Positions 37,867 to 56,370 of a DNA stretch of 60,070 nt are shown here, piece after piece. The stretch spans positions 1 to 60,070 of the forward strand of contig JACPHP010000016.1 of NCBI GenBank assembly GCA_016188605.1, read 5' to 3'. The notes under the pieces were generated by a model. That model was not told the origin of the DNA and searched no databases. It saw nothing but the letters and a program-made list of their open reading frames with translations. How positions within the stretch are numbered: position 1 is the stretch's first letter; the number at the start of each line of letters is the position of its first letter. Both the position numbers and the translations under genes were made by a program. Source of the DNA: Candidatus Spechtbacteria bacterium. GTDB lineage: Bacteria > Patescibacteriota > Minisyncoccia > Spechtbacterales > JACPHP01.

Positions 37867-37888
37867 CATATATGTTATACAAAACTAT

Positions 37889-39294: not shown

Positions 39295-39416
39295 ATTTAA
39301 AATGCAAATCTCAAACCTCAAAATGACAATTAAAAATGAAAAATTTACGTCGTTAGTTAGTTTTACATTTTACACTGTAATTTTGAGATTTGAATTTTAA
39401 TTTTTGAGATTGAAAT
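39295..39416. repeat. word-built hairpin spacer (caaaatgcaaatctcaaa words)
   Basis: aaaatgcaaatctcaaacctcaaaatg pairs with gtaattttgagatttgaattttaatttttgagattg. Confidence 0.75.
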
Positions 39417-39881
39417 ATGCGTAAGTCAAATATTGCAAAGCGCGTTGCTTCACCCGATCCAAAATTCAACAACCCCACCATTGGTAAGTTTATAAACTAT
39501 ATAATGGTGGAAGGCAAGAAGTCTGTTGCCCGACGCGTGGTGTACGGCGCGTTTGATATTATTGCGGAAAAAACAAAAAAAGATCCGATTGAGATTTTTG
39601 ACGAAGCGTTGAAAAACGCAGCTCCTTTGATGGAGCTCAAGTCCCGCCGCGTTGGTGGCGCTAACTACCAAGTGCCTTTGCAGGTGCGCGGAGAACGCCG
39701 TTCTATTATCGCTATGAAGTGGATTATTAACGCCGCGCAGGCCAAGAAAGGCGCCCCGATGGCAAAGAAACTTTCTGATGAACTAATGGCTGCGGCGCGT
39801 AACGAAGGCGCCGCGATTAAGAAGAAAGAAGATACCCACCGCATGGCACAAGCTAATCGCGCATTTTCACATTTTGCTTAA
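39417..39881 (+). CDS. rpsG: 30S ribosomal protein S7
   Basis: DPKF.N..I.KFIN.IM..GKKS.A..V and RRVGGANYQVP. Confidence 0.98.
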   Translation: MRKSNIAKRVASPDPKFNNPTIGKFINYIMVEGKKSVARRVVYGAFDIIAEKTKKDPIEIFDEALKNAAPLMELKSRRVGGANYQVPLQVRGERRSIIAMKWIINAAQAKKGAPMAKKLSDELMAAARNEGAAIKKKEDTHRMAQANRAFSHFA

Positions 39882-39898
39882 GCGAAACCTGAGAAAGC

Positions 39899-40006
39899 AA
39901 TGCCAAAGTCCAAATTATAAAGACCAAATCAATGTCAAAATCCAAAATCCAAAGTTTTGACATTAGGGCATTTGGACTTTATTTGTAATTTGACATTTGG
40001 ACTTTG
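39899..40006. repeat. word-built hairpin spacer (caaagtccaaat words)
   Basis: aatgccaaagtccaaattataaagaccaaatcaatgtcaaaatccaaa pairs with ttttgacattagggcatttggactttatttgtaatttgacatttggactttg. Confidence 0.8.
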
Positions 40007-40019
40007 AATTATTTTTTTT

Positions 40020-42128
40020 ATGCCTCGTCTCTATACTCTTGAAAAAACACGAAATATCGGCATTATCGCACACATTGACGCGGGTAAAACTACAGTTACC
40101 GAGCGTATTTTATTTTACACTGGTATTTCCCATAAAATAGGCGAGGTGCACGAGGGCGCCGCGATTATGGACTGGATGGAGCAGGAGCGAGAGCGCGGCA
40201 TTACTATTACTTCCGCGGCCACGACTTGTTTTTGGATTCCGACAGAGTTTCCTCGCGACGATAAAAGCCATGAAAATCGTTTTAATATTATAGATACTCC
40301 AGGGCACGTGGATTTTACCGTAGAAGTAGAGCGCTCTATGCGCGTGCTGGACGGCGGCGTGGTGGTGTTTGACGGGGTTGCTGGCGTTGAGCCACAATCA
40401 GAAACAGTATGGCGACAGGCGGACAAATACCGCGTGCCACGCATTTGTTTTATAAATAAACTTGACCGCATGGGCGCTAGTTTTGATCGCAGCCTTCAGT
40501 CTATCAAAAATCGTCTCACCACAAACGCGGTGGCAATCCAAATTCCAGTAGGTGAAGAAAGCAATTTTAATGGCGTTATTGACTTACTGACGCAAAAACA
40601 CGTCCGTTTTGAGGGCGAGCACGGCGAGCGCATAATTCATGAAGAAATCCCAGCGAACTTAAAAGAAAAAGCAGATGCGATGCGCGCCGTGATGATGGAA
40701 AGGATTGTAGAACAAGACGACAGTTTGATGGAGCGATATCTAAACGGAGGTGAAATCAGCGTGGACGAGCTTCGCGCGGTGTTGCGCAAAGCAACAATTG
40801 CAAATGATCTAGTGCCTGTTTTGTGCGGAAGCGCGCTGAAAAATCAGGGCGTACAGCTCATGCTCGATGGTGTAGTTTACTATTTACCAAATCCGACAGA
40901 AACCCACGAGATTAAAGGGGAAGACCCTAAGACTGGAGAAGAAGTTCGCCGGAATATAGCGGATACCGATCCGTTTACTTCTCTTGCTTTCAAAATCGCA
41001 AACGACCCCTTTGTGGGCCAGTTGGTGTACTTTCGTGTTTACGCCGGAGTGCTTATGAAGGGTTCGTATGTGTTGAACGCCAGCACCGGCAATAAGGAGC
41101 GCATTGGTCGCATCGTGCGTATGCATGCAAATCAGCGAGAAGAGGTGGACGAGGTATATGCGGGGGATATCGCGGCGGCAGTTGGACTGAAGGGTACAAC
41201 TACCGGTAACACGCTTTGTGATCCCGACCATCCGATTCTTCTTGAAAATATTGTATTCCCAGAGCCAGTTATTTCCGTGCGCATTGAACCGAAGACTCGC
41301 GCCGACCAAGAGAAGATGGGTATCGCGCTTCATCGCCTCACGGAGGAAGACCCGACCTTCCGAGTCAGAACCGACGAAGAAACTGCCGAGGTTATTATCT
41401 CCGGCATGGGCGAGCTTCACCTTGAGATTATCGTTGATCGCATGATGCGCGAGTTTGGCGTGCAGGCAAATATCGGCAGGCCGCAAGTTGCGTATCGCGA
41501 AACTATTAAAAATACAGCAGAGGCAGAAGGAAAATATATTCGCCAAACCGGCGGTCGCGGACAATACGGCCATGTGTGGCTTCGCGTGGAGCCGATGGAG
41601 CAGGGAGCAGGCTACGAATTTATTAATGCTATTAAGGGAGGTATTATTCCCCAAGAATATATTCCTGCGGTTGGAAAGGGCGTGAAGGAAGCGATGGATC
41701 GCGGCGTGCTGGCAGGGTTTCCCATGGTTGACGTTAAGGTTACGCTTTATGACGGATCTTACCATGACGTTGACTCTTCTGAAGCGGCCTTTAAGATTGC
41801 GGGTTCTATCGCATTTCAAGAGGCAACGCGCAGCGCAAAGATTGTTCTCCTTGAGCCGATTATGAAAGTTGAAACTATTACGCCGGACGATCACCTCGGG
41901 GATGTTACGGGCGATTTGAGTTCTAAGCGCGCGCAAATTGAAGAAATGGGCGAGCGAGGAATCTTGAAGACCGTACACGCTCTCGTGCCACTTGCGGAAA
42001 TGTTTGGCTACGCAACACAATTGAGGTCAATGACACAAGGTCGAGGAAGCTACAGCATGGAGTTTAGCCACTACGCGGAGGTGCCGAATAATATCGCGAT
42101 GGGGATTGTGGAAGGGAGGAAGAAGTAA
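40020..42128 (+). CDS. fusA: elongation factor G
   Basis: [15 protein letters not shown] and DTPGHVDF, with all five EF-G domains. 702 aa. Confidence 0.98.
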
Positions 42129-42132
42129 ATTC

Positions 42133-42202
42133 TGTCTACCGACAACAGCTTACCGACGACCGTCTCGTGACGGTTAGCGGTCAGCGGTTGACGGTAGTCA
42201 AC
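42133..42202. repeat. accgac-word hairpin spacer, copy 1
   Basis: tgtctaccgacaacagcttaccgacgaccgtc pairs with gttagcggtcagcggttgacggtagtcaa (the 29-mer 42173-42201 is shared with copies 2 and 3). Confidence 0.85.
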
Positions 42203-42212
42203 TTTATTAAAT

Positions 42213-42548
42213 ATGTGGGAATCACTCAAAAAGTTTATACATAGCAATCATGATCGTATAGTCGTTGTTGAGGATAACGAGCCGCGGTACGTGATAATGC
42301 CAATTGCAGAATACACGGCTTTGATAGAGAGGGGGCGGCAGGCGGATTCGACCCCTTCAATAAACTCCCCTCAATCTAATTCGGGGCAGGCACCGCAGGC
42401 AGACTCAACCGAGGCGCTGCAAAAGGTGAACAATGCGCTTCAAGAGGCACACGAGTCGGAGTCACTGATATCTCCTCCGATTGTGCCTCAAAAAGAGCCA
42501 GAGGACAGGCGTAGATCGGGGATTAGTATAGAAGACCTGCCTATTTAA
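42213..42548 (+). CDS. hypothetical protein inserted between fusA and tuf; N-terminus faintly Phd/YefM-antitoxin-like
   Basis: RIVVVEDNEPRYVIMPIAEYTALIE resembles the Phd/YefM beta-strand/helix pattern (weak, by eye). The C-terminal half is low-complexity and encoded by the repeat at 42344-42392. Confidence 0.5.
   Translation: MWESLKKFIHSNHDRIVVVEDNEPRYVIMPIAEYTALIERGRQADSTPSINSPQSNSGQAPQADSTEALQKVNNALQEAHESESLISPPIVPQKEPEDRRRSGISIEDLPI
42344..42392. repeat. hairpin-containing element embedded in frame in a CDS, copy 2
   Basis: ggattcgaccccttcaataaactCCCCtcaatctaattcGGGGcaggca. Same reading frame as copy 1 (DSTPSINSPQ.NSGQA). Confidence 0.85.
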
Positions 42549-42712
42549 TGTCAAAGTCCAAATTACAAATGACAAAAGAATGTCAAAATCTAAAAATTCA
42601 AAATTGTTAACTTTGACTAAATGCCCTAATTTTCTCCGCCTGAGACGCCTGCCCGCCTCTGGCGGGGATCAGCCTTTGGCTGAGACATTTGGACTTTGAA
42701 ATTTGAGCTTTA
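42549..42712. repeat. caaagtccaaat-word hairpin enclosing the CCGCC module, copy 3
   Basis: The arms tgtcaaagtccaaattacaaatgac.. and ..gacatttggactttgaaatttgagc flank 42626-42674, which is identical to 37317-37365. Confidence 0.8.
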
Positions 42713-42723
42713 AATTGCATCTA

Positions 42724-42751
42724 TTGACGTAATCATAAATATAAGTAAAAT
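42724..42751 (+). promoter_or_regulatory. promoter TTGACG-N16-TAAAAT for tuf (about 200-nt leader)
   Basis: -35 at 42724-42729 and -10 at 42746-42751. Confidence 0.5.
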
Positions 42752-42806
42752 ACATCTTGTGTCCTTAACTTACCTTTTTGCTCAGTAGACACTGACGCGA
42801 AAAGCT

Positions 42807-42927
42807 AGGGCTTACGCGTTTGGATGAGATGCTAGGCGCGGACGAGCAGCCGACCGAGACGTACTAAAGTACGTTGAGGAAGGAAGCGCAGTCCGCAACA
42901 ACGCAGATCGCCAAACGCGTAAGCCCT
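42807..42927 (+). ncRNA. structured element A in the tuf leader
   Basis: 17-bp closing helix agggcttacgcgtttgg/ccaaacgcgtaagccct, inner gcggac/gtccgc, and hairpin ACGTAC-taaa-GTACGT. Its homologue is at 31988-32110. Confidence 0.55.
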
Positions 42928-42959
42928 ATAAGCAATAAACTAACTAATAAATAAAATAT

Positions 42960-44153
42960 ATGGCAGAAAAATATCAGCGCACAAAACCTCATATAAACGT
43001 AGGCACAATCGGTCACGTTGACCACGGCAAGACTACACTAACAGCCGCGATTTTGAAGTACGCGCAGCTTAAAGGATGGACAGCATCCAAGAAAGGAATT
43101 AATGAAATTGACTCCGCGCCGGAGGAGCGCGCTCGTGGGATTACGATTGCATTGGCTCACGTTGAGTACGAGACATCTAATCGTCATTACGCGCACATTG
43201 ACGCTCCAGGACACGCGGATTACATTAAGAATATGATTACCGGCGCCGCGCAGATGGACGGCGCAATTTTGGTGGTATCAGCAGCAGACGGTCCAATGCC
43301 CCAGACTCGTGAGCACATACTTTTAGCTCGACAGGTAGGCGTGCCAAATATCATCGTATTCTTAAACAAAGTAGACCAGGTAGATGATCCAGAGCTTATA
43401 GAGCTTGTAGAAACAGAAATTCGTGAGCTTTTGAATAAATACGAATATGATGGCGAAAAAACTCCTATCATCAAGGGTTCAGCGCTCAATGCTTTGAGCG
43501 CGGCATCCGCAGATGACGCGGCGGCGTTGCCAATCGGCGAATTGCTCACTACAATGGACGAATACTTCCCACTGCCTGTACGCGAAACGGAAAAGCCGTT
43601 TCTAATGCCAGTTGAAGACATTTTTTCCATTGAAGGCCGCGGTACTGTTGTTACTGGTAAAATTGAGCGCGGTAAAATCAACATCAATCAGGAAGTTGAA
43701 ATCGTCGGCATTCGCCCAACGTCAAAGACAGTTGTCACTGGTATTGAAATGTTCAACAAACAACTCGATGAGGGTCTAGCTGGCGATAATGTTGGTTTGC
43801 TTTTGCGCGGTTTGAAGAAAGAAGACGTAGAACGCGGGCAGGTTATTGCCGCAACCGGCACAATCACACCGCATACGGAATTCACAGCACAAGTATATAT
43901 TCTCTCAAAAGAAGAAGGTGGCCGCCACACTCCGTTTTTCACTGGATACAAGCCGCAATTTTATTTCCGCACAACTGATGTTACCGGCGATGTAACCTTA
44001 CCTGAAGGCACCGAAATGGTTATGCCTGGCGATACCGTGTCGTTGAATGTTAAATTGGTTTCTCCTATAGGCATGGAGGAACAACAGCGATTTGCTATTC
44101 GTGAGGGAGGCCGCACAGTCGGCGCGGGTGCCGTAACAAAGATTTCCGCCTAA
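42960..44153 (+). CDS. tuf: elongation factor Tu
   Basis: [27 protein letters not shown] and NKVD. 397 aa. Confidence 0.99.
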
Positions 44154-44196
44154 GTGTTAAATTACATTTTTTTGTAATTATATTAATTTTTCTGCA

Positions 44197-44595
44197 ATGA
44201 GCGCACAAACAACAAAAGGACAAAAAAAAACGCAAACTGTGGTACGAGCGGTCCACGAAGGCGGACGCGAAAGCGTGAAAACAGAAGAGGCTCACCAGCG
44301 ATTGCGCATCAAAATAAAAGCGTATGATCATAAAGTCATTGACTCAAGCGTGCGCCAGATTGTTGATACCGCAATGCGCTATGGCGCAGAGATGCGGGGT
44401 CCTATACCTCTTCCTACGGAATTCCACAAGTACACGGTTAATCGTTCCACTTTTATCCATAAGGACGCCAGAGAGCAGTTTGAAATGAGGATTCATAAAC
44501 GATTGCTTGACATTATCAACCCTTCTCCGCAAGTTATTGATTCTTTGATGGATCTGAACTTGCCGGCGGGTGTGGATATTGAGATAAAGATGTAA
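44197..44595 (+). CDS. rpsJ: 30S ribosomal protein S10 with a ~30-aa N-terminal extension
   Basis: [16 protein letters not shown]...IPLPT....TV.RS...HK..REQFE.R.HKRL. There is no internal start near the canonical N-terminus. Confidence 0.93.
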
Positions 44596-44700
44596 AAAAG
44601 TTAGGTTGAATTTATTAGTATTTAAACAAACTAAATGGTACACAATCGTTTAGTGCGATTATTTTCATTGTGATAAGCGCGATAAGATTTGCGTTAGCCG

Positions 44701-44740
44701 TTTTATAAAAAATCGGGGCTAGCCCCGATTTTTTATAAAA
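44701..44740. terminator. terminator-like hairpin between rpsJ and rplC
   Basis: ttttataaaaaatcggggc-ta-gccccgattttttataaaa, symmetric with A/T runs on both sides. Confidence 0.6.
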
Positions 44741-44753
44741 ATAAATTCTAGCC

Positions 44754-45365
44754 ATGAGTAAAATAATTTTGGGTACAAAACTCGGCATGAGCCAGATATT
44801 CACAGAGCAAGGACGTGTCATTCCCGTGACGCTTATTTCTTGTGGTCCATGCAAAGTTACCCAAACAAAGACCAAGGATAAGGATGGCTACAATGCAATG
44901 CAAGTTGGATTCGGCACCAAGAAAAAACTCTCACCGGCGATGAAGGGCCACTTGAAAGGATTGGAATTTTTCCGCTGGCTCCGCGAGCTTCGCTTGTCGG
45001 AAAACCAAGAGCCGACTGTCAAGCGTGGTGACGTGATAGATGTTTCTTCATTTGCAGAAAAAGAAGAGGTGAGTGTTACGGGAGTTTCTAAAGGAAAAGG
45101 TTTCCAGGGCGTAGTGAAGCGTTGGGGATTTGCGGGGCATTTTCACACACATGGAACTAAGAATACAGAACGCGCTCCAGGCGCAATAGGATCGGGATTT
45201 CCTCAGCACGTGCTAAAAGGCAGAAAAATGGCCGGTCGCATGGGCGGAGATCAGATGACGCGTCGCATGAAGATTGTAAAAGTTGACGCTAAAAACAATA
45301 TCCTTATGCTGGATGGGCCAGTGGCTGGTGTGGCAGGATCGTTAGTTGAGATTCGATCTAACTAA
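44754..45365 (+). CDS. rplC: 50S ribosomal protein L3
   Basis: ILGTKLGMSQIF..G...PVT and KGKGFQGVVKRWGF. Confidence 0.97.
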   Translation: MSKIILGTKLGMSQIFTEQGRVIPVTLISCGPCKVTQTKTKDKDGYNAMQVGFGTKKKLSPAMKGHLKGLEFFRWLRELRLSENQEPTVKRGDVIDVSSFAEKEEVSVTGVSKGKGFQGVVKRWGFAGHFHTHGTKNTERAPGAIGSGFPQHVLKGRKMAGRMGGDQMTRRMKIVKVDAKNNILMLDGPVAGVAGSLVEIRSN

Positions 45366-45375
45366 AATATAAATA

Positions 45376-45454
45376 TTGTCAACCGACAACCGCTTACCGA
45401 CAACCGTTTCGTTATTCGTTTGACAGTTAGCGGTCAGCGGTTGACGGTAGTCAA
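45376..45454. repeat. accgac-word hairpin spacer, copy 2
   Basis: Tandem accgacaaccgctt / accgacaaccgttt at 45382-45409. The right arm agttagcggtcagcggttgacggtagtcaa is at 45425-45454. Confidence 0.9.
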
Positions 45455-45466
45455 ATTGATTAACTT

Positions 45467-46159
45467 ATGAAACTTCCCTTATACACAATTGAAGGAAAAG
45501 AAAAAGGGACGGTAGAAGTACCAGATGCGATTTTTGGTGTGAGCGCAAGCTCTGATTTGCTTCACCAAGCAGTAAACGCGGCGCTAGCAAATTTGCGCAA
45601 GCCTTATGCTCATACGAAAGATCGTAGCGAAGTACGTGGCGGCGGTCGCAAGCCATGGAAGCAAAAAGGCACAGGCCGCGCTCGTCATGGATCAAGACGA
45701 TCTCCATTATGGGTTGGTGGAGGTGTTACGTTCGGCCCAAGCAAGGAAAAAGTTTTTGCGCAGAAGATTAATACCAAGATGAAGCAAAAGGCTTTATTCG
45801 GCGCATTATCATCAAAGATGATGGAAAACAACATTTTTATTGTAGAAAGTTTTACAACTCCGGAGGTAAAAACAAAGAAAGGGGTAGCTTTTTTGCAAGC
45901 GATTAAGTCTGTACGAGGCGCGGATAAGAAATTAGGAAAGGTGTTAATTTGGGGATCGATGGACGACAAAGAATTTCGCCGAATGTTTCGAAACATTGCA
46001 GGGGTTACCCCGCTCCGCATTGAGAATATAAATATTATTGATGTATTTAATCACGCGCATGTGATATTTTCAAAGTCGGCGCTTGATTTATTCATTACGC
46101 GATATGGCAATACTAGATTGGTTCAACCAAAAGCAGGAGCAGCAAAGGAAGCAGTCTAA
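45467..46159 (+). CDS. rplD: 50S ribosomal protein L4
   Basis: RGGGRKPWKQKGTGRARHGSRRSPLWVGGGVTFGP. Confidence 0.97.
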   Translation: MKLPLYTIEGKEKGTVEVPDAIFGVSASSDLLHQAVNAALANLRKPYAHTKDRSEVRGGGRKPWKQKGTGRARHGSRRSPLWVGGGVTFGPSKEKVFAQKINTKMKQKALFGALSSKMMENNIFIVESFTTPEVKTKKGVAFLQAIKSVRGADKKLGKVLIWGSMDDKEFRRMFRNIAGVTPLRIENINIIDVFNHAHVIFSKSALDLFITRYGNTRLVQPKAGAAKEAV

Positions 46160-46592
46160 GGGGGTACAATCCGAAAGGACAAAATCCTCAAAGGCAAGGC
46201 AGCCCAAGAAGCAAACTGCGCAGCAGACGGAAGTCGCTGAAAATAAAGAAGAGATAAAAAAGCCCCTAAAATTGGGGGAAGAAGTTGTTGGCGTAAAGAA
46301 CACGTTAACCGCAGGGTTCCAACATATTATTCATTCCGCATACATTACTGAAAAGACTACGAATATGCAGCCGATGGGTAAGTATGTATTTCGTATTTTC
46401 CCCACAGCAAATTCCACGCAAGTTGCAAATGCTATCAAGGCGATTTATAAAGTCCATGTGCGTAACGTGCATATTATAACTCTTCCCGAAAAGAGGGTGA
46501 GAAGAGGACGATACACTGCGACGCGCACGCGCTATCCGAAGGCAATCGTGACATTGAAGCAGGGCGAAACGATTGAAGTAGTACCAAATTAA
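46104..46592 (+). CDS. rplW: 50S ribosomal protein L23 with a ~70-aa Lys/Gln-rich N-terminal extension
   Basis: The C-terminal 95 aa are L23-like (YITEKT......KYVF.....ANSTQV..AI...Y.V.V..V). The start is uncertain (ATG 46104 or TTG 46083) and overlaps the rplD 3' end. Confidence 0.85.
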   Translation: MAILDWFNQKQEQQRKQSKGVQSERTKSSKARQPKKQTAQQTEVAENKEEIKKPLKLGEEVVGVKNTLTAGFQHIIHSAYITEKTTNMQPMGKYVFRIFPTANSTQVANAIKAIYKVHVRNVHIITLPEKRVRRGRYTATRTRYPKAIVTLKQGETIEVVPN

Positions 46593-46720
46593 AAAACTAA
46601 AATCTTAAATCTCAAACCTCAAATCTACAACTCAAATCTTAAATCTACGTAAGAAGTTTTGAGATTTTAGATTCAGTTTTGAGATTTGCCATTTGAGATT
46701 TGAGATAAAAAGTTAAATTT
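46593..46720. repeat. word-built hairpin spacer (aaatctcaaa words) at the non-canonical L23|L14 junction
   Basis: ctaaaatcttaaatctcaaacctcaaatctacaactcaaatcttaaatc pairs with gttttgagattttagattcagttttgagatttgccatttgagatttgag. Confidence 0.8.
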
Positions 46721-47086: not shown

Positions 47087-47089
47087 CAA

Positions 47090-47167
47090 CTATGAATAGT
47101 GAATCATGAATAGTGAATCATGCAGGTGTAGGTATTCATGATTCGTGATTCACTATTCAGTATTCAT
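47090..47167. repeat. word-built hairpin spacer (exact 14-nt tandem atgaatagtgaatc x2)
   Basis: Tandem units at 47092-47105 and 47106-47119, then ATGCAGG. The right arm is attcatgattcgtgattcactattcagtattcat. Confidence 0.9.
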
Positions 47168-47174
47168 TTAACCT

Positions 47175-48052: not shown

Positions 48053-48068
48053 TCTTTATTAGGGTGGG

Positions 48069-48177
48069 GTTGACCCCGTTAGAGATGCAGGCATAAAACA
48101 AAATAAAGTACTTTATAGAATCCATTTAAATTTTTATCCTAAACCTATTTTCCACATTTATCTCTAACGGGGTTGAC
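48069..48177. repeat. inverted repeat spacer whose right arm carries the reused promoter core
   Basis: gttgaccccgttagagat (48069-48086, followed by ATGCAGG) pairs with atctctaacggggttgac (48160-48177). Confidence 0.8.
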
Positions 48178-48200
48178 TTAAATGTAATTTTCTGTAAAAC
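48114..48200 (+). promoter_or_regulatory. reused promoter cassette, copy 2: TTGACT-N16-TAAAAC; leaderless geometry for rpsN
   Basis: tatagaatccatttaaatttttatc..tttatctctaacggggTTGACT. -35 at 48173-48178 and -10 at 48195-48200. The ATG at 48208 lies 8 nt after the -10. Confidence 0.5.
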
Positions 48201-48207
48201 TTTTTCT

Positions 48208-48393
48208 ATGGCTAGAAAAGCCCTCATCAACAAAGCGCAAAGGACGCCAAAATTTTCAACTCGGCTTGTTCGACGATGTTTCCGTTGCGGAAGAAAAAAT
48301 TCATATATGAGAGATTTTAGATTGTGCAGAATTTGTTTCAGAGAGCTTGCAAATAGAGGAGAGCTCCCGGGTGTTAAAAAAGCTTCTTGGTAG
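48208..48393 (+). CDS. rpsN: 30S ribosomal protein S14, type Z (zinc)
   Basis: 61 aa with CFRCGR..........CRICFRE. Confidence 0.96.
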
Positions 48394-48458
48394 TGCCACA
48401 AAACGGCACTCGCGGACAACGCGGACTTAACGCAGAAATACGCAGAAAAATTAAATTT

Positions 48459-48653
48459 ATGGATATTCGTGAAACGAGACAAAAATCAATACCCGAACTA
48501 GAATCGCTTTTGAGAGAAAATCAGGCGCATTATCTTGATTTGCGATTTCGCGTGCAAGGAGGACGAGTGAAGAACGTTAACGAGATGCAGCGCGCGCGCA
48601 AGGATATCGCGCGATTATTTACTCTTCTGCGCCAAGCTACTCTAAAGAAATAA
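48459..48653 (+). CDS. rpmC: 50S ribosomal protein L29
   Basis: MDIRETRQKSIPELESLLRENQAHYLDLRF. The track ORF start at 48387 extends into the spacer. Confidence 0.9.
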   Translation: MDIRETRQKSIPELESLLRENQAHYLDLRFRVQGGRVKNVNEMQRARKDIARLFTLLRQATLKK

Positions 48654-48778
48654 TTTAGATTGTAAAATGTATATTCTAATACTTAAAAAGTAAAATAATT
48701 TGAAGCTCAGTATACAGTTGTAACTGTATACTGAGTGATGAATTTGCAACATCGCTTCGCTCTGGCAAATTCTATCAT

Positions 48779-49081
48779 ATGACAGCAACATTCCCCAAAA
48801 AATTTGAAGGAACCGTGGTGTCCAACTCAATGGATAAGACTGTTGTCGTGGAAGTGCGAATGTTGAAGCAGCATCCTAAATACAAAAAGTTCATGAAGCT
48901 GAGCAAACGCTATAAGGCGCACGATGATGGGAATATATATAAAGTAGGCCAGCGTGTTTCTATTGTTGAGGTGCGGCCAATATCTAAAGATAAGAAATGG
49001 AAAGTCCAAGAGCTTCTGTCAGATGTTAAAGAAATAGCAGAGGAGATCGGAGAAGTTAATGAAGAGATTGCATCATTATGA
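48779..49081 (+). CDS. rpsQ: 30S ribosomal protein S17
   Basis: FEGTVVSNSMDKTVVVEV......PKYKK......RYKAHD and V.I.E.RPISK.K.W. Confidence 0.95.
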   Translation: MTATFPKKFEGTVVSNSMDKTVVVEVRMLKQHPKYKKFMKLSKRYKAHDDGNIYKVGQRVSIVEVRPISKDKKWKVQELLSDVKEIAEEIGEVNEEIASL

Positions 49082-49905
49082 AATACCGCAAACCAACGTC
49101 ACCAGGACAACGCGGGATGGTCGTTTCAGACTTTTCCGACCTAATCAAGCCGAAAAGAAAAAAACGGCTTGTTGTTGCGCATCATCGTTTTGTTGGTCGC
49201 AGCAGAGGAAAGATAACAGTGCGCCATAAAGGTAGTGGCGCAAAGCGTTTATATCGTCTCGTTGATTTCAAGCAAGATAAATTTGATATTTCCGCGACAG
49301 TTTTGCATTTGGAATATGACCCCAATAGAAGCGCGCGCATCGCATTTGTTCAATACAAAGACGGCGAAAAAAGATATGTGCTTGCCACGCAAGACACAAA
49401 GCCGGGTGATGAAATAATGTCATCAGAAAAGAAGATCGCGCTTATAAACGGCAATCGTATGCCACTTAAACATATCACCATTGGAACGTTTGTGCACAAC
49501 ATTGAGTTGGGACATAATCGTGGAGGTATGCTTGCGCGTTCTGCGGGAGCGTATGGCAAAGTTGCGGCACAGGAAGGGGCATCAACGCATATTATAATGC
49601 CTTCATCTGAAGTGCGTATAATTCAAAATGACTGTTTGGCAACAGTTGGCGTGGCGTCCAACGCTTCGCATAGCGAAGAAGTAATAGGAAAAGCAGGTCG
49701 TAATCGCCACAAGGGAATTCGTCCGACTGTTCGTGGTACAGCAATGAACCCGGTTGATCATCCGCACGGAGGAGGTGAGGGCAGAGCGCCGATTGGCATG
49801 CCTCATCCAAAGACACCGTGGGGCAAGCCCGCGCTTGGCGTGAAGACGCGAGACAGACGGCGATATTCTAACAGGCTTATTGTTCAACGAAGAAGGAAGA
49901 AATAG
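49078..49905 (+). CDS. rplB: 50S ribosomal protein L2
   Basis: KPTSPGQRG and [15 protein letters not shown] 4-nt ATGA overlap with rpsQ. Confidence 0.98.
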
Positions 49906-49908
49906 AAC

Positions 49909-50019
49909 TAAAGTTAAAAGTTAAAAGTCACAAGTTAAAAATTATAGTATGCCGCTTCGCGGCAATATATACATCCCCAAAGGGGATACCGACACTTTTA
50001 ACTTTTGACTTTACACTTT
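49909..50019. repeat. two-hairpin core module, copy a (aagttaaaagtcac-word arms)
   Basis: Core at 49941-49990: attatagtaTGCCGCttcGCGGCAatatatacATCCCCaaaGGGGATacc. Confidence 0.9.
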
Positions 50020-50033
50020 GTATTTTTTTAATT

Positions 50034-50342
50034 ATGTCACGATCACTGAAAAAAGGAGCATACGTAAATGAGAAGCTGATGAAAAAAATCGGCAAGCTTA
50101 GAGTTGGCGATAAAACCGTAATCAAGACGTGGTCGCGCTCCTCAACTATTACTCCTGAGATGATTGGATTGACTTTTGGAGTGCATAATGGCAAAGATCA
50201 TATTCCAGTGTATGTTACAGAAGACATGGTCGGACATAAGTTAGGTGAATTTTCCCCAACACGAAAGTTTGCGCGTCACGGAGGAAAAATGCAGAAAGAG
50301 ATTGAGGGTAAAGGAGTGGCACAGCCAGTAGCCAAAAAATAA
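50034..50342 (+). CDS. rpsS: 30S ribosomal protein S19
   Basis: [22 protein letters not shown] and VHNGK. Confidence 0.98.
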
Positions 50343-50351
50343 TATTAAAAA

Positions 50352-50438
50352 TGTCTACCGACGACCGCTTACCGACTACAGCTCACAGCCATCAGACGAG
50401 TAATGGGCAGTTAGCGGTCAGCGGTTGACGGTAGTCAA
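50352..50438. repeat. accgac-word hairpin spacer, copy 3
   Basis: tgtctaccgacgaccgcttaccgac pairs with agttagcggtcagcggttgacggtagtcaa (50409-50438). Confidence 0.9.
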
Positions 50439-50450
50439 TTAATTGGATTT

Positions 50451-50801
50451 ATGCCAACAGCAACAGCAAAACTTTCTTATATGCACATCGCGCCTCGCAA
50501 GGTGCGGCTTGTTGCTGATGTTATTCGTGGCATGCGTGTTGATCGAGCGGAAGAGCAGTTACGTTTTTCACGTAAACGCGCGGCCCACGATATTTTGAAG
50601 CTTTTGAAGTCTGCCCAGGCAAACGCAAGGGGATCGGAAAAAGATGTAAAAAATCCCGCACCCCTGTATGTGCGAAGTATTGTTGTTGAACAGGGTCCGG
50701 CATACAAGCGTTATCATCCGCAATCGCGAGGCCGCGCGGCATTGATTAAAAAGATAACCAGCCATGTGAAAATTGAATTGGCTGAAAAGGAAACTAAATA
50801 A
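50451..50801 (+). CDS. rplV: 50S ribosomal protein L22
   Basis: I.PRKVRLVADVIRG..V..A...L.FS.K.AA. Confidence 0.97.
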   Translation: MPTATAKLSYMHIAPRKVRLVADVIRGMRVDRAEEQLRFSRKRAAHDILKLLKSAQANARGSEKDVKNPAPLYVRSIVVEQGPAYKRYHPQSRGRAALIKKITSHVKIELAEKETK

Positions 50802-50896
50802 AGTTAAAAGTCACAAGTTAAAAATTATAGTATGCCTCTTCGCGGCAATATATACATCCCCAAAGGGGATACCGACACTTTTAACTTTTGACTTTA
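50802..50896. repeat. two-hairpin core module, copy b
   Basis: Core at 50824-50873, with stem TGCCTC/GCGGCA (a U.G pair in the sense strand). Confidence 0.9.
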
Positions 50897-50919
50897 AATT
50901 TTACACTCGCAGTAAACTT

Positions 50920-51645
50920 ATGGCACACAAAGTTCACCCCACATCATTTAGACTCGGTATTTTAACGGAATGGAAGTCACGTTGGTTTAGCGCGCGCGGA
51001 TATCAAGATAATTTGCAAGAAGAAATATACATTCGTGAGAAATTAGTGAAACAATTGCGCAGTGCCAGCATAGATAAGATTGAATTTGAACGGTCTGGAA
51101 ACAAACTTTCTGTTATTATACATACGGCTCGCCCAGGGCTTATTATTGGTCGCGGGGGCGCTGGCGCGGATGATTTACGCGCATCAATAGTGAAGATGAT
51201 ACGCGCCACTCGCTTGGTTAATAAGCCGGAAAAAGGTATAAATAAATCTACACATCATCGCGAAGACAAAAAAGAAGTAGAGCAGCCGAAGCGTCTACCC
51301 GAAGTTCGCGTTGAGATTCGCGAAGTACGACAACCCGAACTTTACGCGGCCCTTGTTGGTCAAGGTATCGCAGAGCAGCTAGAAAAACGCATGCCTTTCC
51401 GACGTGTAATTAAGCGAACATTGGATCGCGTGATGATGAATAAAGCCGTACAAGGCGCGAAGATTATGGTTAAGGGTCGTCTTGATGGTTCTGAAATGGC
51501 GCGCAGAGAGTTGGTTAGAGCTGGCCGTCTCCCTTTACAAAAGCTCCGCGCTGATATAGATTATGCTCACACCATTGCGTATACTACGTACGGTGTTATT
51601 GGCGTGACAGTGTGGATTTATCGAGGAGATAAGCTGGAGAAATAA
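50920..51645 (+). CDS. rpsC: 30S ribosomal protein S3
   Basis: MAHKVHPTSFRLGI...W.S.WF with a KH domain. The track ORF start at 50773 reads through the repeat. Confidence 0.96.
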   Translation: MAHKVHPTSFRLGILTEWKSRWFSARGYQDNLQEEIYIREKLVKQLRSASIDKIEFERSGNKLSVIIHTARPGLIIGRGGAGADDLRASIVKMIRATRLVNKPEKGINKSTHHREDKKEVEQPKRLPEVRVEIREVRQPELYAALVGQGIAEQLEKRMPFRRVIKRTLDRVMMNKAVQGAKIMVKGRLDGSEMARRELVRAGRLPLQKLRADIDYAHTIAYTTYGVIGVTVWIYRGDKLEK

Positions 51646-51646
51646 T

Positions 51647-51762
51647 AAATTCAAAATGCAAATCTTAAATCTCAAAATTATGGTGTGCCGCGGAGCGGCA
51701 CTATATACATTCCCCAAAGGGGATACCAAAGTTTTGCATTTTGAGATTTAAGTTTTGAGATT
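51647..51762. repeat. two-hairpin core module, copy c (caaaatgcaaatc-word arms)
   Basis: Core at 51677-51727: attatggtGTGCCGCggaGCGGCACtatatacatTCCCCaaaGGGGAtacc. Confidence 0.9.
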
Positions 51763-51767
51763 GAAAT

Positions 51768-52181
51768 ATGTTAGTCCCAAAGAAGGTAAAACATCGTAAA
51801 TGGACAAAGGGCCATCATCGTACGGCGATAGATTCGCGTGGCACGACGCTTAGTTTTGGTTCTTACGGTCTGCAAGTCAAGGAAGGCCATGGGCGTGTTA
51901 CGAGCCGTCAGATTGAAGCTGTGCGCCGCGTGTTTACACGCGCGATGAAAAAAGGAGGAAAAGTGTGGATCCGTATTTTCCCAGATCGGCCAATAACTAA
52001 GAAAGGAGTGGAGGTTCCGATGGGCGGAGGAAAGGGTTCGGTAGAGCATTATGTGGCGGACGTTGGTCCGGGACGCATTTTGTTTGAGATTGATGGAATA
52101 ACTCCCGATGTCGCAAAAGAAACAATGCGGCTTGCAGGATTCAAGCTGTCGGTGCGGACACGGATGATTACTAGAGAGTAA
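51768..52181 (+). CDS. rplP: 50S ribosomal protein L16
   Basis: MLVPKKVKHRK...G, with the G.YGL pattern and RQIEA.RR. Confidence 0.98.
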   Translation: MLVPKKVKHRKWTKGHHRTAIDSRGTTLSFGSYGLQVKEGHGRVTSRQIEAVRRVFTRAMKKGGKVWIRIFPDRPITKKGVEVPMGGGKGSVEHYVADVGPGRILFEIDGITPDVAKETMRLAGFKLSVRTRMITRE

Positions 52182-52287
52182 AAGTTAGTTAAAAGTTAAA
52201 AGTCACAAGTTAAAAATTATAGTATGTCGCTTCGCGGCAATATATACATCCCCAAAGGGGATACCGACACTTTTAACTTTTGACTTT
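52182..52287. repeat. two-hairpin core module, copy d, at the non-canonical L16|L6 junction
   Basis: Core at 52216-52265, with stem TGTCGC/GCGGCA (a U.G pair in the sense strand). Confidence 0.9.
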
Positions 52288-52308
52288 AAATTTTACACTT
52301 ATTTAATT

Positions 52309-52851
52309 ATGTCACGAATTGGCAAACAACATATTACGTTACCAAAAAATGTCACGATCGAACAAAACGACCGTGTTTTGAATATAAGCGGGCCGCGGGG
52401 CGCGCTTTCCATAATACTAACCAATGAGGTTGAAGTAAGAAATGAGAATGGCGTATATATTGTTGGGCTTTCTAGCAATGAACTAAATAAAAAAAGCGTA
52501 TCTTTATGGGGGCTTACAAAACGCTTAATTGAAAATGCCGCGAAAGGAGTAAGTGAAGGGTTTAGTAAGAAAATGTTTATTGAAGGTGTTGGCTACCGGG
52601 CAGAAATACAGGGGAAAGATTTAGTGTTGAGTTTGGGATTCTCTCATCCGGTTCGCATTTCTGCTCCAGAAGGAATACAATTCAATGTTGATAAAAACAC
52701 ACTTACTGTTTCGGGGAACGATAAATATCTAGTTGGGCAGGTTGCGGCAAATATCCGCGTGTATCGAAAGCCAGAACCATATAAAGGAAAGGGTATTCGT
52801 TATGAGGGCGAACGCGTTCGTCGCAAGGCTGGTAAGAAAGCGGCTGCGTAA
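52309..52851 (+). CDS. rplF: 50S ribosomal protein L6
   Basis: MSRIGKQ.I.LP..V and PEPYKGKGIRY. Confidence 0.97.
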   Translation: MSRIGKQHITLPKNVTIEQNDRVLNISGPRGALSIILTNEVEVRNENGVYIVGLSSNELNKKSVSLWGLTKRLIENAAKGVSEGFSKKMFIEGVGYRAEIQGKDLVLSLGFSHPVRISAPEGIQFNVDKNTLTVSGNDKYLVGQVAANIRVYRKPEPYKGKGIRYEGERVRRKAGKKAAA

Positions 52852-52879
52852 TTGATTTTAATTATTTGAACAAAGATTT

Positions 52880-53245
52880 ATGGAAAGTCGCGTCTCTACA
52901 AAAAAAAGAATATTAAGAAATCGTCGTCACAAGCGAATTCGCAGTACGATGCAGGGGACCAAACAGCACCCGCGGCTTTGCGTATTTCGTTCAAATACAT
53001 CAATATACGCGCAAATTATTGATGATGAGAAGGGTATGGTATTGGCTTTTGCAACAGATCGTAAGTTGAATGATAAAAAGAAAGAAGGTAAGGTTGGCCG
53101 CGCGGAGCGAGTAGGAGAGCAAATCGCTGAACTTGCCAAGAATGCGGGTATTAAAAAAGTGAAATTTGATCGCGGAGGATATAGATATCACGGTCGTATA
53201 AAAGCGCTTGCCGATGGCGCAAGGAAAGGAGGGTTGATATTCTAA
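52880..53245 (+). CDS. rplR: 50S ribosomal protein L18
   Basis: R..R.R......T...PRL.VFRSN..IYAQIIDD and FDRGGY.YHGR.KALA. Confidence 0.97.
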   Translation: MESRVSTKKRILRNRRHKRIRSTMQGTKQHPRLCVFRSNTSIYAQIIDDEKGMVLAFATDRKLNDKKKEGKVGRAERVGEQIAELAKNAGIKKVKFDRGGYRYHGRIKALADGARKGGLIF

Positions 53246-53343
53246 CTAAAGTTAAAAGTCACAAGTTAAAAATTATAGTATGTCGCTTCGCGGCAATATA
53301 TACATCCCCAAAGGGGATACCGACACTTTTAACTTTTGACTTT
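53246..53343. repeat. two-hairpin core module, copy e, at the non-canonical L18|S8 junction
   Basis: The core at 53272-53321 is identical to copy d. Confidence 0.9.
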
Positions 53344-53363
53344 AAATTTTGAATTTATATTTT

Positions 53364-53756
53364 ATGCATTCCGATCCAATAGCAGACATGCTTAATCGAA
53401 TAAAGAACGCTTCTATACTCCACCACGAGGTGGTGAAGATTCCGTATTCCAAAGTAAAAGGGCAACTCGCCGATTTGCTATTGGAAGAAGGTTTTTTGGC
53501 AGGAGTGGATCGCAAGAAAGACGGCGTGCGAAAATATCTTGTTATTAATTTGCGCTATGAAGGGGGTGCGTCGGCAGTTAATGGAGTTGCGCGAATCAGT
53601 AAGCCTGGGCGCCGTATGTATGTTAAGGCGGCGGAAGTTAAGCCGGTTAAGCATGGCTATGGTTGCGCGGTTATATCAACGTCCAAAGGTCTCATGACGG
53701 ATAAGCGCGCCCGCGAGAAAGGGCTTGGCGGAGAGTTTTTTTGTAAAGTTTGGTAA
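53364..53756 (+). CDS. rpsH: 30S ribosomal protein S8
   Basis: DPIADMLNRIKNA and ST..G....RA....GGE. The ATG at 53364 is preferred to the track TTG at 53349. Confidence 0.96.
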   Translation: MHSDPIADMLNRIKNASILHHEVVKIPYSKVKGQLADLLLEEGFLAGVDRKKDGVRKYLVINLRYEGGASAVNGVARISKPGRRMYVKAAEVKPVKHGYGCAVISTSKGLMTDKRAREKGLGGEFFCKVW

Positions 53757-53767
53757 AAAGGTACATT

Positions 53768-54433
53768 ATGCCAACACCACAATTATCACAATCAAGAAAT
53801 TCACAAGACCATCGTCGTATGGGGCCTGGAGGAGGAAGGGGGGGCGAGCGAAGGGGTGGGATACAGCAAAGGAGAGAACGAGGTCCGCAAACTCAAAGAG
53901 AGGGATCGCGTTTTGCGTCACAAGAATTTGAGCAAAAACTTTTACAGCTTGCTCGCGTTGCTCGTGTCACGAAAGGCGGACGACGATTTAGTTTCCGCGC
54001 GACAGTAGTTATTGGTGATCGCAATGGTCGTGTCGGGGTGGGGGTTGCAAAGGGAACTGACGTTTCCGCGGCAGTTGAAAAAGCCGTGCGTAATGCTAAG
54101 CGCGCTTTGATTATTGTCCCAATGACAAAAAATAAGACTGTTCCTTATGAAGTCATCGGCAAGCAGACTAGCGCCCGAGTATTTTTGGCACCGGCATTCG
54201 GCGGGCGTGGAATTATTGCTGGAGGCGCTGTGCGCGCAGTGTGCGACCTGGCAGGATATCGTGATATTTCAGCAAAAATTTTAGGACGCACGAGTAATAA
54301 ATTAAATAACGCGCTTGCAACCATTAAAGCATTGCAATCAATTAAGATGATGAAGCGAGGAAAGGTTACGCAAAACGAAGTAATCTCAAACGAAACGGTC
54401 GTGAGTGAGGATGAGGTTCAACTAGTAAAATAA
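53768..54433 (+). CDS. rpsE: 30S ribosomal protein S5 with an Arg/Gly-rich N-terminal extension
   Basis: VTKGGRRFSFRATVVIGDRNGRVGVGVAKG, preceded by about 50 aa of GGGRGGERRGG-type sequence. Confidence 0.95.
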   Translation: MPTPQLSQSRNSQDHRRMGPGGGRGGERRGGIQQRRERGPQTQREGSRFASQEFEQKLLQLARVARVTKGGRRFSFRATVVIGDRNGRVGVGVAKGTDVSAAVEKAVRNAKRALIIVPMTKNKTVPYEVIGKQTSARVFLAPAFGGRGIIAGGAVRAVCDLAGYRDISAKILGRTSNKLNNALATIKALQSIKMMKRGKVTQNEVISNETVVSEDEVQLVK

Positions 54434-54437
54434 AATA

Positions 54438-54519
54438 TCTAGAATACAGAATCTAGAATACAGAATGCAGGAAAAACTAACCGCAACTCCCCGTATTCTT
54501 GATTCTGTATTCTGTATTC
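54438..54519. repeat. word-built hairpin spacer (exact 14-nt tandem tctagaatacagaa x2)
   Basis: Units at 54438-54451 and 54452-54465, then ATGCAGG. The right arm is gtattcttgattctgtattctgtattc. Confidence 0.9.
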
Positions 54520-54525
54520 AAAGTT

Positions 54526-54969
54526 ATGCAGATGCACGAATTACAAAAACCGAAGACTCAGAGAAAATCTCGACGCGTGGGACGCGGCGGAAAGCGCGGT
54601 ACTTATTCTGGTCGTGGCATGAAAGGGCAAAAAGCGCGCGCGGGCGCAAAGATACGCCCGGAATTCCGTGAATTTTTTAAGCGCGTTCCGAAGCTCCGCG
54701 GCTCAAACGGCCCAACTTTTGCATTCAAAAAAAATAATGTAGAGGTGGTTTCCCTCCAGGCGCTTGATAAATATTTTGAAAAAGGAGATGTTGTATCGCC
54801 AAAGACACTGGTTGAGCACAAGGTTGCCGTTAAGCTTAACGGCCGCTTGTCACTTGTAAAGATTCTCTCTAAAGGTACAATTTCTAAAGGAGTGAATGTG
54901 GAAGGATGTTCCCTTTCAGCATCAGCACGTAAGCAGATTGTGAGTGCAGGAGGAAGCGTTAAAAACTAA
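54526..54969 (+). CDS. rplO: 50S ribosomal protein L15
   Basis: RRVGRGGKRGTYSGRGMKGQKARAG. It directly follows rpsE, with no L30 gene between them. Confidence 0.95.
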   Translation: MQMHELQKPKTQRKSRRVGRGGKRGTYSGRGMKGQKARAGAKIRPEFREFFKRVPKLRGSNGPTFAFKKNNVEVVSLQALDKYFEKGDVVSPKTLVEHKVAVKLNGRLSLVKILSKGTISKGVNVEGCSLSASARKQIVSAGGSVKN

Positions 54970-55088
54970 ACTCAAAATGCAAATCTCAAATCTCAAAATT
55001 ATGGTGTGCCGCGAAGCGGCACTATATAAATCCCGCCAGAGGCGGGATACCACAACTTTGCATTTTGAGCTTTAAGTTTTGAGATTGA
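54970..55088. repeat. two-hairpin core module, copy f (variant second hairpin)
   Basis: Core at 54998-55051: attatggtGTGCCGCgaaGCGGCACtatataaaTCCCGCCagaGGCGGGAtacc. Confidence 0.9.
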
Positions 55089-55093
55089 AACCT

Positions 55094-56368: not shown

Positions 56369-56370
56369 GG

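Follow-up and report, generated by a model that had tools for sequence, protein, structure and literature searches.

Short tandemly repeated repetitive (STRR) sequences, which are heptanucleotide repeats, have been known in cyanobacteria since 1990, and to our knowledge no mechanism or function has been established for them. In several cyanobacterial genera these 7-bp tandem repeats are reported to form hairpins between co-transcribed genes such as hupS and hupL (PMC2670836), with a proposed part in stabilising transcripts or coupling translation (PMC2670836; see also PMC2408588, PMC4692102). Marine Beggiatoaceae carry arrays of the heptamer TAACTGA just upstream of start codons that have no ribosome-binding site, some of them within ribosomal-protein operons (fusA, L3, S4, S21); the arrays stand in for the ribosome-binding site, a post-transcriptional role has been proposed for them, and they may or may not be mobile elements (MacGregor 2015, PMC4679880). 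Heptamers are the commonest long simple-sequence repeat and have been put down to polymerase slippage, according to Mrazek (2007) as cited in PMC4679880 and PMC4692102. Here we describe hairpins built from heptamer words that fill the spacers of the str/S10/spc ribosomal-protein cluster in a 60,070-nt stretch of DNA from Candidatus Spechtbacteria bacterium (contig JACPHP010000016.1, positions 1 to 60,070; hereafter the window). These elements are of the same kind as the STRR hairpins and not the same family by descent, since both the words and the host differ.

The cluster lies on the + strand at 38866-56368, where Pfam matches identify, in order, S12, S7, EF-G, a small Phd/YefM-like open reading frame (ORF), EF-Tu, S10, L3, L4, L23, L14, L24, L5, S14, L29, S17, L2, S19, L22, S3, L16, L6, L18, S8, S5, L15 and SecY. 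A preliminary description, made from the letters of the stretch, had reported about 17 junctions with spacers of one common architecture. The long spacers are indeed there, measuring at least 65 nt at 19 of the 25 junctions from S12 to SecY, and the common design is confined to 15 of them, each a single long imperfect hairpin with arms made of tandem words; the other four (S10–L3, L5–S14, S14–L29 and L29–S17) are structured in a different, non-heptamer way. Junctions of at least 60 nt typically make up a fraction of about 0.1-0.3 in 80 ribosomal-protein loci from GTDB representative genomes, and 0.67-0.75 in only a few Patescibacteria among them. The 15 hairpins of the cluster and three elements of the same type outside it, all of which the preliminary description had located with slightly different limits for the last two, are listed below with their word families, where named (A to D), their minimum free energies (MFE, in kcal/mol) and their z scores.

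39295-39416, + strand: S12–S7 spacer, family B-like hairpin lacking a GC core, left arm AAAATGCAAATCTCAAACCTCAAAATGACAATTAAAAATG; MFE -23.9, z -2.9
39882-40019, + strand: S7–EF-G spacer, family D hairpin with words CAAAGTC/CAAATTA, in direct repeat with 42547-42595; MFE -32.6, z -3.4
42129-42212, + strand: EF-G–Phd-like ORF spacer, family C hairpin with words ACCGACA/ACCGCTT and right arm GTTAGCGGTCAGCGGTTGACGGTAGTCAA; MFE -39.5, z -6.2
42549-42720, + strand: first part of the Phd-like ORF–EF-Tu spacer, family D arms around a GC module nested at 42614-42676; z -5.6
45366-45466, + strand: L3–L4 spacer, family C hairpin; MFE -32.9, z -5.2
46593-46720, + strand: L23–L14 spacer, family B-like hairpin with words AAATCTC/AAACCTC; MFE -35.0, z -6.2
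47087-47174, + strand: L14–L24 spacer, hairpin of (TGAATAG TGAATCA)x2 with an apex starting ATGCAGG; MFE -33.4, z -6.7
49906-50033, + strand: L2–S19 spacer, family A element with AAGTTAA/AAGTCAC arms and the two-hairpin core TATAGTATGCCGCTTCGCGGCAATATATACATCCCCAAAGGGGATACC; MFE -38.6, z -7.6
50343-50450, + strand: S19–L22 spacer, family C hairpin; MFE -40.7, z -5.4
50802-50919, + strand: L22–S3 spacer, family A element; z -4.7
51646-51767, + strand: S3–L16 spacer, family B element with CAAAATGCAAATCT.. arms and a core variant; MFE -43.5, z -7.0
52182-52308, + strand: L16–L6 spacer, family A element; z -6.1
53246-53363, + strand: L18–S8 spacer, family A element; z -6.1
54434-54525, + strand: S5–L15 spacer, hairpin of (TCTAGAA TACAGAA)x2 with an apex starting ATGCAGG; MFE -29.6, z -7.1
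54970-55093, + strand: L15–SecY spacer, family B element with a symmetrically longer second mini-hairpin, TCCCGCC-AGA-GGCGGGA; MFE -46.5, z -7.5
21799-21938, + strand: spacer between a HIT-family gene and S21, outside the cluster, heptamer hairpin with words AATTTTC/AATTTAC; z -2.8
23235-23366 (first limit approximate), + strand: YbeY–FtsA spacer, outside the cluster, heptamer hairpin with a GC palindrome module (23206-23238) ahead of it; z -3.1
37170-37551, + strand: composite nested element of heptamer words upstream of the toxin-antitoxin/M50/S12 block; MFE -148, z -11.8

Compared with 200 dinucleotide-preserving shuffles per element, the 15 cluster hairpins, with MFE values of -24 to -47 kcal/mol, reach z scores of -2.9 to -7.6 and are real; for 13 of the 17 elements in the folded set, no shuffle folded equally well. 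The elements measure 70-130 nt with a GC content of 21-49%, and share the anatomy described earlier of tandem-word arms, an apex and an imperfectly complementary second arm next to a start codon: two opposed arrays of 7-nt words pair into an imperfect stem of 25-45 bp, often with small GC hairpin modules nested at the apex. The 5' foot of the stem lies 0-16 nt past the stop codon and its 3' foot 1-23 nt short of the following ATG, the latter a slightly wider range than the 5-23 nt first given. In the composite element at 37170-37551, the outer arms are 71 nt long (37235-37305 and 37474-37544) and 86% complementary. An assembly artefact was excluded: independent Logan contigs from this species agree with the window in every base (100%) over 3,269 and 1,219 nt and end inside repeats, and one of the Logan contigs (L082) begins inside the L23–L14 element at 46593-46720.

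The exact tandems quoted in the preliminary description are where it had placed them, but the basic unit that it took to be about 14 nt long is a pair of related heptamers (TGAATAG/TGAATCA, TCTAGAA/TACAGAA, ACCGACA/ACCGCTT, AAGTTAA/AAGTCAC). We defined a tract as a run of 21 positions with at least 17 self-matches at a given lag and compared lags of 4 to 12. The 60-kb window contains eight tracts at lag 7 versus none or one at each other lag, and none after shuffling; a related locus from a soil metagenome (L085) contains 11 at lag 7 versus none at other lags, and 80 other loci together contain 108 at lag 7, 27 at lag 8 and at most 18 at any other lag. Differences between successive heptamers are concentrated in three or fewer of the seven phases (share 0.86 vs 0.70 in the null). 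Each word thus consists of a constant core of about 4 nt and about three variable bases, and the stems of 4-5-bp helices with regular small internal loops between them. At a looser threshold of 15/21, 22 of the window's 27 heptamer tracts fall within the 17.5-kb cluster, which makes the cluster a hot spot.

At least six word families can be counted in the window, where at least seven had been proposed. The four copies of family A (starting at 49906, 50802, 52182 and 53246) lie within 3.5 kb and are nearly identical, and their apex core TATAGTATGCCGCTTCGCGGCAATATATACATCCCCAAAGGGGATACC is non-repetitive and folds as two GC mini-hairpins, with a 25-nt core 100% identical among the copies. Family B has copies at 51646 and 54970 and core-less relatives at 39295 and 46593; its arms (CAAAATGCAAATCTCAAAT...) differ from those of family A, while its core is homologous, and the core mini-hairpins keep their pairing through changes on both sides (TCCCC-AAA-GGGGA vs TCCCGCC-AGA-GGCGGGA). 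Family C comprises three copies with an identical 29-nt right arm, and family D two, one of which carries a GC module (42614-42676) that recurs at 37305-37367 with 94% identity. Every family has few copies, confined to a few kilobases of one another. Alignments of the flanks of family A and C copies showed no target-site duplications, and the ends of these copies are not fixed, differing by whole 7-nt words on both sides. No transposase domain was found in the scanned ORFs of the window, nor was a Y1-transposase domain or a RAYT gene (REP-associated tyrosine transposase) seen there. Rfam at gathering thresholds, its models of ribosomal-protein leader and autoregulatory RNAs included, detected only two tRNAs in the whole window and nothing in the spacers, and a permissive Rfam scan of 42500-43000 returned only noise. 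The core motif of families A and B had a single chance match, inside an exonuclease gene, among 185,579 GTDB representative genomes and none in JGI metagenome contigs. Looking up the exact S19 protein sequence gave no match. The heptamer ATGCAGG, put forward as a shared start of three apices, occurs at 47120 and 54465 as described and at 48085 rather than 48084; with eight occurrences in the window versus 7.1 expected, and two of the three cases stemming from related word families, it is not a shared apex signal.

Relatives of this genome reveal turnover of the elements. The genome is of a Patescibacterium of the Parcubacteria type, and its L2 protein is only 57-60% identical to the best GTDB representatives. 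In a congener with 90% L2 identity (L084), the L29–S17 spacer measures 19 nt versus 125 nt in the window, and the word family after L2 differs. In the soil-metagenome locus L085 (L2 68% identical), eight junctions show this architecture in AGCTTTT/AGCTTAT words unrelated to those of the window, and copies at neighbouring junctions are up to 100% identical over 87 nt. Seven of these eight junctions hold a hairpin in the window as well (hypergeometric p about 0.065), and eight of the window's 15 hairpins have no counterpart in L085. Between samples, L085 and L086 are 99.97% identical with no insertions or deletions, too alike to bear on slippage. An NCBI assembly with 59% S3 identity (L209) carries hairpins at all four junctions visible on its contig, and all four are occupied in the window too. 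Its S19–L22 element has a left arm of about 50 nt that is nearly identical to that of the window's S12–S7 element (39295-39416), hence at a different junction, and its L16–L6 element is a family B member whose core is a variant. L220 and L221 also match this left arm of the window almost identically over about 50 nt. In L211, the closest relative to keep the canonical order (L2 62% identical), spacers are a compact 2-17 nt. The comparison of spacers in relatives that the preliminary description had called for yields the same design in other words, presence and absence at single junctions, as in L084, compact spacers in L211, and no target-site duplications.

In the window, the S10/spc genes are permuted on one strand, as L23-[L14 L24 L5 S14]-[L29 S17]-[L2 S19 L22 S3 L16]-[L6 L18]-[S8]-S5-L15 followed by SecY, and no L30 gene was found in this cluster. 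The canonical order is present in 80 of 80 GTDB representative loci; the permuted adjacencies are present wherever the contigs of L084-L088 (L2 68-90% identical) and L209 span the affected junctions. At the S17–L2 permutation junction the genes overlap (ATGA), so the rearrangement is old. Three hairpin-filled junctions, L23–L14, L16–L6 and L18–S8, are products of the permutation.

Hairpins of heptamer words also occur in ribosomal-protein spacers of Patescibacteria with canonical gene order (L005, a member of the Yanofskybacteria, and L019, L029, L030 and L060) and of an Endomicrobium (L070), with words of the AAAGTTA type in L019, L029, L030 and L070. Across 81 loci, the density of heptamer tracts is equal inside and outside the ribosomal-protein span (0.94 vs 1.04 per 10 kb). 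The 27-nt arm word of family B was found in 60 stretches of DNA, 14 from GTDB representative genomes and 46 from metagenomes, the former including metagenome-assembled genomes labelled Yanofsky-, Berkel- and Saccharibacteria and one Flavobacterium. Just one of the 60 adjoins ribosomal-protein genes. A complementary arm follows downstream at 15 of 52 distinct places, and the word also occurs alone and as a direct array. At about 20 of the 52 places it lies in frame inside a long ORF, always on the sense strand, and is read as Q-N-A-N-L-K-S-Q-N in about 19 of 22 cases (among L212-L271, e.g., L216, L219, L226, L251, L257, L260); from their translated flanks, these ORFs were taken for PcrA/UvrD-, GyrA-, GatA- and histidine-kinase-like genes. 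Viral contigs contained no match to the word, on which ground a phage vector was rejected. Arrays of at least three copies of AACCTGT, the word of L005, are found in Cyanobacteria (among them Nostoc and Anabaena), Bacteroidota, Acidobacteriota, Chloroflexota, Gemmatimonadota, Longimicrobium, Patescibacteria and others (L089-L208). An imperfect inverted partner lies within 150 nt of 29 of 120 such arrays, far above chance, and upstream of the perfect array in 27 of the 29. The element class thus occurs throughout Patescibacteria, untied to ribosomal-protein genes, and is piled up in the str/S10/spc cluster of this clade. The genome-wide distribution of the family elsewhere argues against a dedicated ribosomal-protein function, and a function specific to ribosomal-protein operons was rejected on the single ribosomal-protein neighbourhood among the 60 stretches and the equal tract density; RNase III sites and standby or re-initiation platforms, raised in the preliminary description, stay candidate roles.

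Within the cluster, GGAG or GAGG precedes none of the 26 genes (3 of 65 in the window), so Shine–Dalgarno (SD) sequences are absent, as noted before. The 20 nt 5' of the starts are 74% A+T, with T at position -1 in nearly all cluster genes. No hairpin is among the intrinsic-terminator-like sites, the stems being AT-rich with no adjacent T-run, and promoter-like sites are not significantly enriched (43 vs 30.8 +/- 7.4). Each family A copy carries TTAAAA-16-TATAGT, with 9 of 12 promoter matches, a motif absent from families B, C and D. The hairpins do not qualify as terminators, nor clearly as promoters. Selection at the RNA level should favour folding of the sense strand through G-U pairs; this strand folds better in 11 of 20 window elements, which is no bias, in 8 of 9 in L085 and in 6 of 6 in L019. 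An ORF of 31-32 codons, stopping 16-18 nt short of the following ATG, is retained in family B copies. A relay of small ORFs through the hairpins was rejected as a general mechanism, 5 of 16 spacers containing no ATG-initiated ORF. The window also encodes ComEC and DprA; a DNA-uptake signal, considered for that reason, was rejected by argument, a single over-represented motif being expected and many word families being present.

The preliminary description had known of no element class with this design. The hairpins in fact share it with the cyanobacterial STRR sequences, and the heptamers of Beggiatoaceae come close to it. As in STRR sequences, the unit is 7 nt, tandem arrays are intergenic, opposed arrays form hairpins within an operon, words recur across the phylum, and close strains differ in length and sequence (PMC2670836, PMC2408588, PMC4692102). 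Unlike STRR sequences, the elements described here belong to another phylum and other words, are nearly always complete hairpins that fill the spacer, have nested GC mini-hairpin cores, form composite families copied as units, and saturate the most conserved operon cluster. The TAACTGA repeats differ in consisting of one word, in almost exclusively direct orientation (one indirect set among 170), with no stem and no composite element. What is new here is the phylum and the extreme form; the heptamer-repeat hairpin design is known. We found no paper describing such elements in Patescibacteria.

Repetitive extragenic palindromes (REPs) and the bacterial interspersed mosaic elements (BIMEs) that they form in enterobacteria and pseudomonads resemble the present elements. 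They are extragenic palindromes that often lie within operons, are co-transcribed there and protect upstream mRNA segments. Their families are species-specific and arranged in mosaics (PMC2817692). REPs, however, are 20-40 nt long and GC-rich, with a conserved head, hundreds of copies and RAYT transposases, whereas the elements here are 70-130 nt long, AT-rich and 7-nt periodic, with few copies per family and no RAYT gene seen in the window. Correia/NEMIS elements of Neisseria and ERIC elements of enterobacteria are about 100-150 nt long and form mRNA hairpins that alter processing and stability. Both have been reviewed (PMC3184786, PMC10969869). They differ in their defined terminal inverted repeats and TA duplication, neither of which was found in the family A and C alignments. 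In Clostridium, selective processing and stabilization of RNA (SRPS) involves stem-loops at the 3' ends of cistrons for subunits of one complex, the stability of which sets stoichiometry (PMC4423207, PMC8219983). The SRPS stems are unique and non-repetitive, with processing shown experimentally, whereas the elements here are known from sequence alone.

What has filled the spacers of this cluster? The explanation that we favour, and to which we assign about an even chance, is that they are filled by dispersed heptamer-word palindromic repeats, the Patescibacterial counterpart of STRR sequences, through slippage, copying between spacers and tolerance. Arms would lengthen and shorten in 7-nt steps by replication slippage, and whole elements would be copied between nearby spacers, leaving no target-site duplication, with recombination or gene conversion between copies, or a trans-acting mobiliser, as candidate processes. 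Such copying would homogenise copies within a genome, and the dominant word families would diverge between genomes. An operon could tolerate the elements in that an AT-rich stem with no U-tract would not terminate transcription, and insertion into an originally very short spacer would place the stop codon at the 5' foot of the stem and the following start codon at its 3' foot. The hairpins would be co-transcribed and fold in the polycistronic mRNA, where they may be nuclease barriers, and with no SD sequence, initiation at the next cistron may hinge on the terminating ribosome opening the stem at its base. Each copy by itself is dispensable. The MITE-like invasion (miniature inverted-repeat transposable elements) raised in the preliminary description comes nearest among its suggested roles to the comparative evidence, because of the near-identical copies, a junction filled in the window and empty in the congener, word families swapped at the same junction and a phylum-wide arm word; a simple MITE burst does not fit, since duplications are absent, ends are fuzzy, and copies are few and local. 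Several points weigh against the explanation by slippage, copying and tolerance. Arms of about 50 nt and a core with symmetric changes, kept at 59% S3 identity, exceed the neutral expectation for slippage, and such conservation points to selection, sequence-specific machinery or horizontal spread. The slightly above-chance sharing of junctions (seven of eight in L085, four of four in L209) could reflect selection there, and the sense-strand bias of L085 and L019 hints at RNA-level constraint in those genomes. The survey covers 60 kb of the genome, and the cluster is enriched about 10-fold within the window, which we would ascribe to local spread and tolerance.

The main rival reading, conceivable though rather unlikely, is that the hairpins are instead selected intercistronic RNA devices, in which the stem sequesters the AU-rich region before the start codon, the terminating ribosome melts it and so couples translation, and the hairpin blocks exonucleases or offers RNase III sites in the manner of SRPS. 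The stems span the spacers with stop and start codons at their two feet, SD sequences and overlapping stop/start codons are absent, and such action has been proposed for STRR sequences and shown for SRPS (PMC2670836, PMC4423207). The same junctions tend to be filled by non-homologous hairpins in L085 and L209, elements of L085 and L019 fold more stably on the sense strand, the apex mini-hairpins keep their pairing through two-sided changes, and arms and core are conserved between distant genomes. Single hairpins are nevertheless dispensable, as in the 19-nt L29–S17 spacer of L084 and at the eight occupied window junctions that L085 leaves without one; the same family occurs away from ribosomal-protein genes, even inside ORFs; and the window lacks a folding bias between strands. 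Moreover, the geometry would be trivial for insertions into spacers originally of 2-20 nt, and symmetric changes in a palindrome can also come from template switching on DNA with no selection. Classical MITEs, that is, deletion derivatives of insertion sequences moved in trans with the heptamer arms as terminal inverted repeats, would account for multiple nearly identical copies, for presence and absence at junctions among relatives, for elements nested in elements, for the occurrence of one family in distant Patescibacteria and for short-read contigs that break at copies. We nonetheless consider them improbable: target-site duplications and fixed ends are missing, the copies differing by whole heptamers at both ends; the arms are low-complexity arrays that pair in several registers rather than defined terminal repeats; copies of each family are few and local; no transposase domain was detected in the scanned window ORFs; and the arm word also occurs in isolation, as a direct array and, inside genes, in frame, with no viral-contig matches. 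That the elements are terminator-plus-promoter cassettes splitting the cluster into many small transcription units is suggested by the great stability of the stems and by the promoter-like motif in every family A copy. This seems very unlikely, as no hairpin matches the intrinsic-terminator pattern, promoter-like sites show no significant excess, the other three families lack the motif, and a transcript starting from it, in the left arm and core of family A, would still fold the downstream half of the element. Least probable of all, we think, are purely local mutational by-products, arising by independent slippage and fold-back synthesis in each spacer with no copying between sites. The 7-nt periodicity, the fuzzy ends and the heptamer arrays of many phyla would fit such an origin, but composites of 100-120 nt, non-repetitive cores included, are nearly identical at four junctions, and arms of 27-50 nt are identical across distant genomes. 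The shared cores of the composite copies already contradict independent slippage at each site.

The window also contains palindromic elements of other kinds. An imperfect hairpin of about 126 nt, not built of heptamers, occurs twice, and three further copies were located:

42803-42928, + strand of the window: 126-nt hairpin
31988-32113, - strand of the window: 126-nt hairpin
L085, 940-1065: 126-nt hairpin
L019, 3129-3256: 126-nt hairpin
L132, 2724-2844: 126-nt hairpin

The copies of L085 and L019 occupy the S7–EF-G spacer, antisense to the genes. The unpaired blocks CTAGGCGC and GCAACAACG are conserved, and among three sequences 15 of 42 predicted pairs are changed on both sides, with one U-G pair invariant. 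A covariance model matched two further Patescibacteria at 76 and 46.5 bits, and no Rfam family matched. This hairpin may be a small RNA or one more kind of palindromic element. Among promoter-like sites on the + strand, the region's best two are TTGACG-16-TAAAAT at 42724-42751, some 50 nt upstream of this hairpin and of EF-Tu, and TTGACA-17-TAAATT at 38831-38859, immediately upstream of S12.

Two of the four non-heptamer spacers show structures of their own. The L5–S14 spacer (48053-48207) has terminal inverted repeats of about 20 nt (GGGGTTGACCCCGTTAGAGAT / ATCTCTAACGGGGTTGAC) around about 85 AT-rich bases, and its right half recurs with 89% identity in the FtsA–FtsZ spacer (24664-24727). The S10–L3 spacer (44596-44753) contains a terminator-like hairpin, AAAAAATCGGGGCTAGCCCCGATTTTTT (about 44703-44739), flanked by A and T runs, inside what is normally a single operon. 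Outside the cluster, gene ends carry perfect palindromes with arms of 21-27 nt rather than heptamer hairpins. One pair of these palindromes shares 92% identity, and a 55-nt stretch that includes one such hairpin exists in two exact copies, at 3276 and 4091. The palindromic gene ends and the duplicated stretch are:

7310-7363: palindromic gene end
11978-12031: palindromic gene end
9689-9743: palindromic gene end
36396-36443: palindromic gene end
56370-56415: palindromic gene end
3276-3330: duplicated stretch with gene-end hairpin
4091-4145: duplicated stretch with gene-end hairpin

The small ORF between EF-G and EF-Tu (42213-42548) has a weak Pfam match to Phd/YefM antitoxins, and a 61-nt piece of it recurs at 36206-36266 with 85% identity. 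A 97-codon ORF with no Pfam match on record takes the same position in L085 (3374-3667). Genes for a Gp49-like toxin and a helix-turn-helix antitoxin (37552-38173) lie directly 5' of an M50 peptidase gene and S12 and are preceded by the composite repeat at 37170-37551.

The occurrence of an STRR-like design in Patescibacteria shows that the phenomenon is not just cyanobacterial. Its standout features here are arm words conserved across the phylum, composites copied as discrete units, and the occupation of 15 junctions in the most conserved operon cluster of bacteria. In the clade of the window (with L084-L088 and L209) the repeats coincide with permuted gene order, and they break short-read assemblies exactly within the marker-gene cluster used in phylogenomics of the candidate phyla radiation. 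We speculate, as a doubtful but consequential extension, that Patescibacteria, like cyanobacteria, may have a sequence-specific system that makes and spreads heptamer arrays and palindromes, the products of which would in this clade have been recruited as the regular joint between cistrons of ribosomal-protein operons without SD sequences. Such a system would explain identical arms of 27-50 nt in very distant genomes, in spacers and genes alike, and through such co-option, stop and start codons at the feet of a stem would replace coupling by overlapping codons. An SD-less operon with about 15 stems footed by stop and start codons is a natural system for probing translational coupling or mRNA stabilisation.

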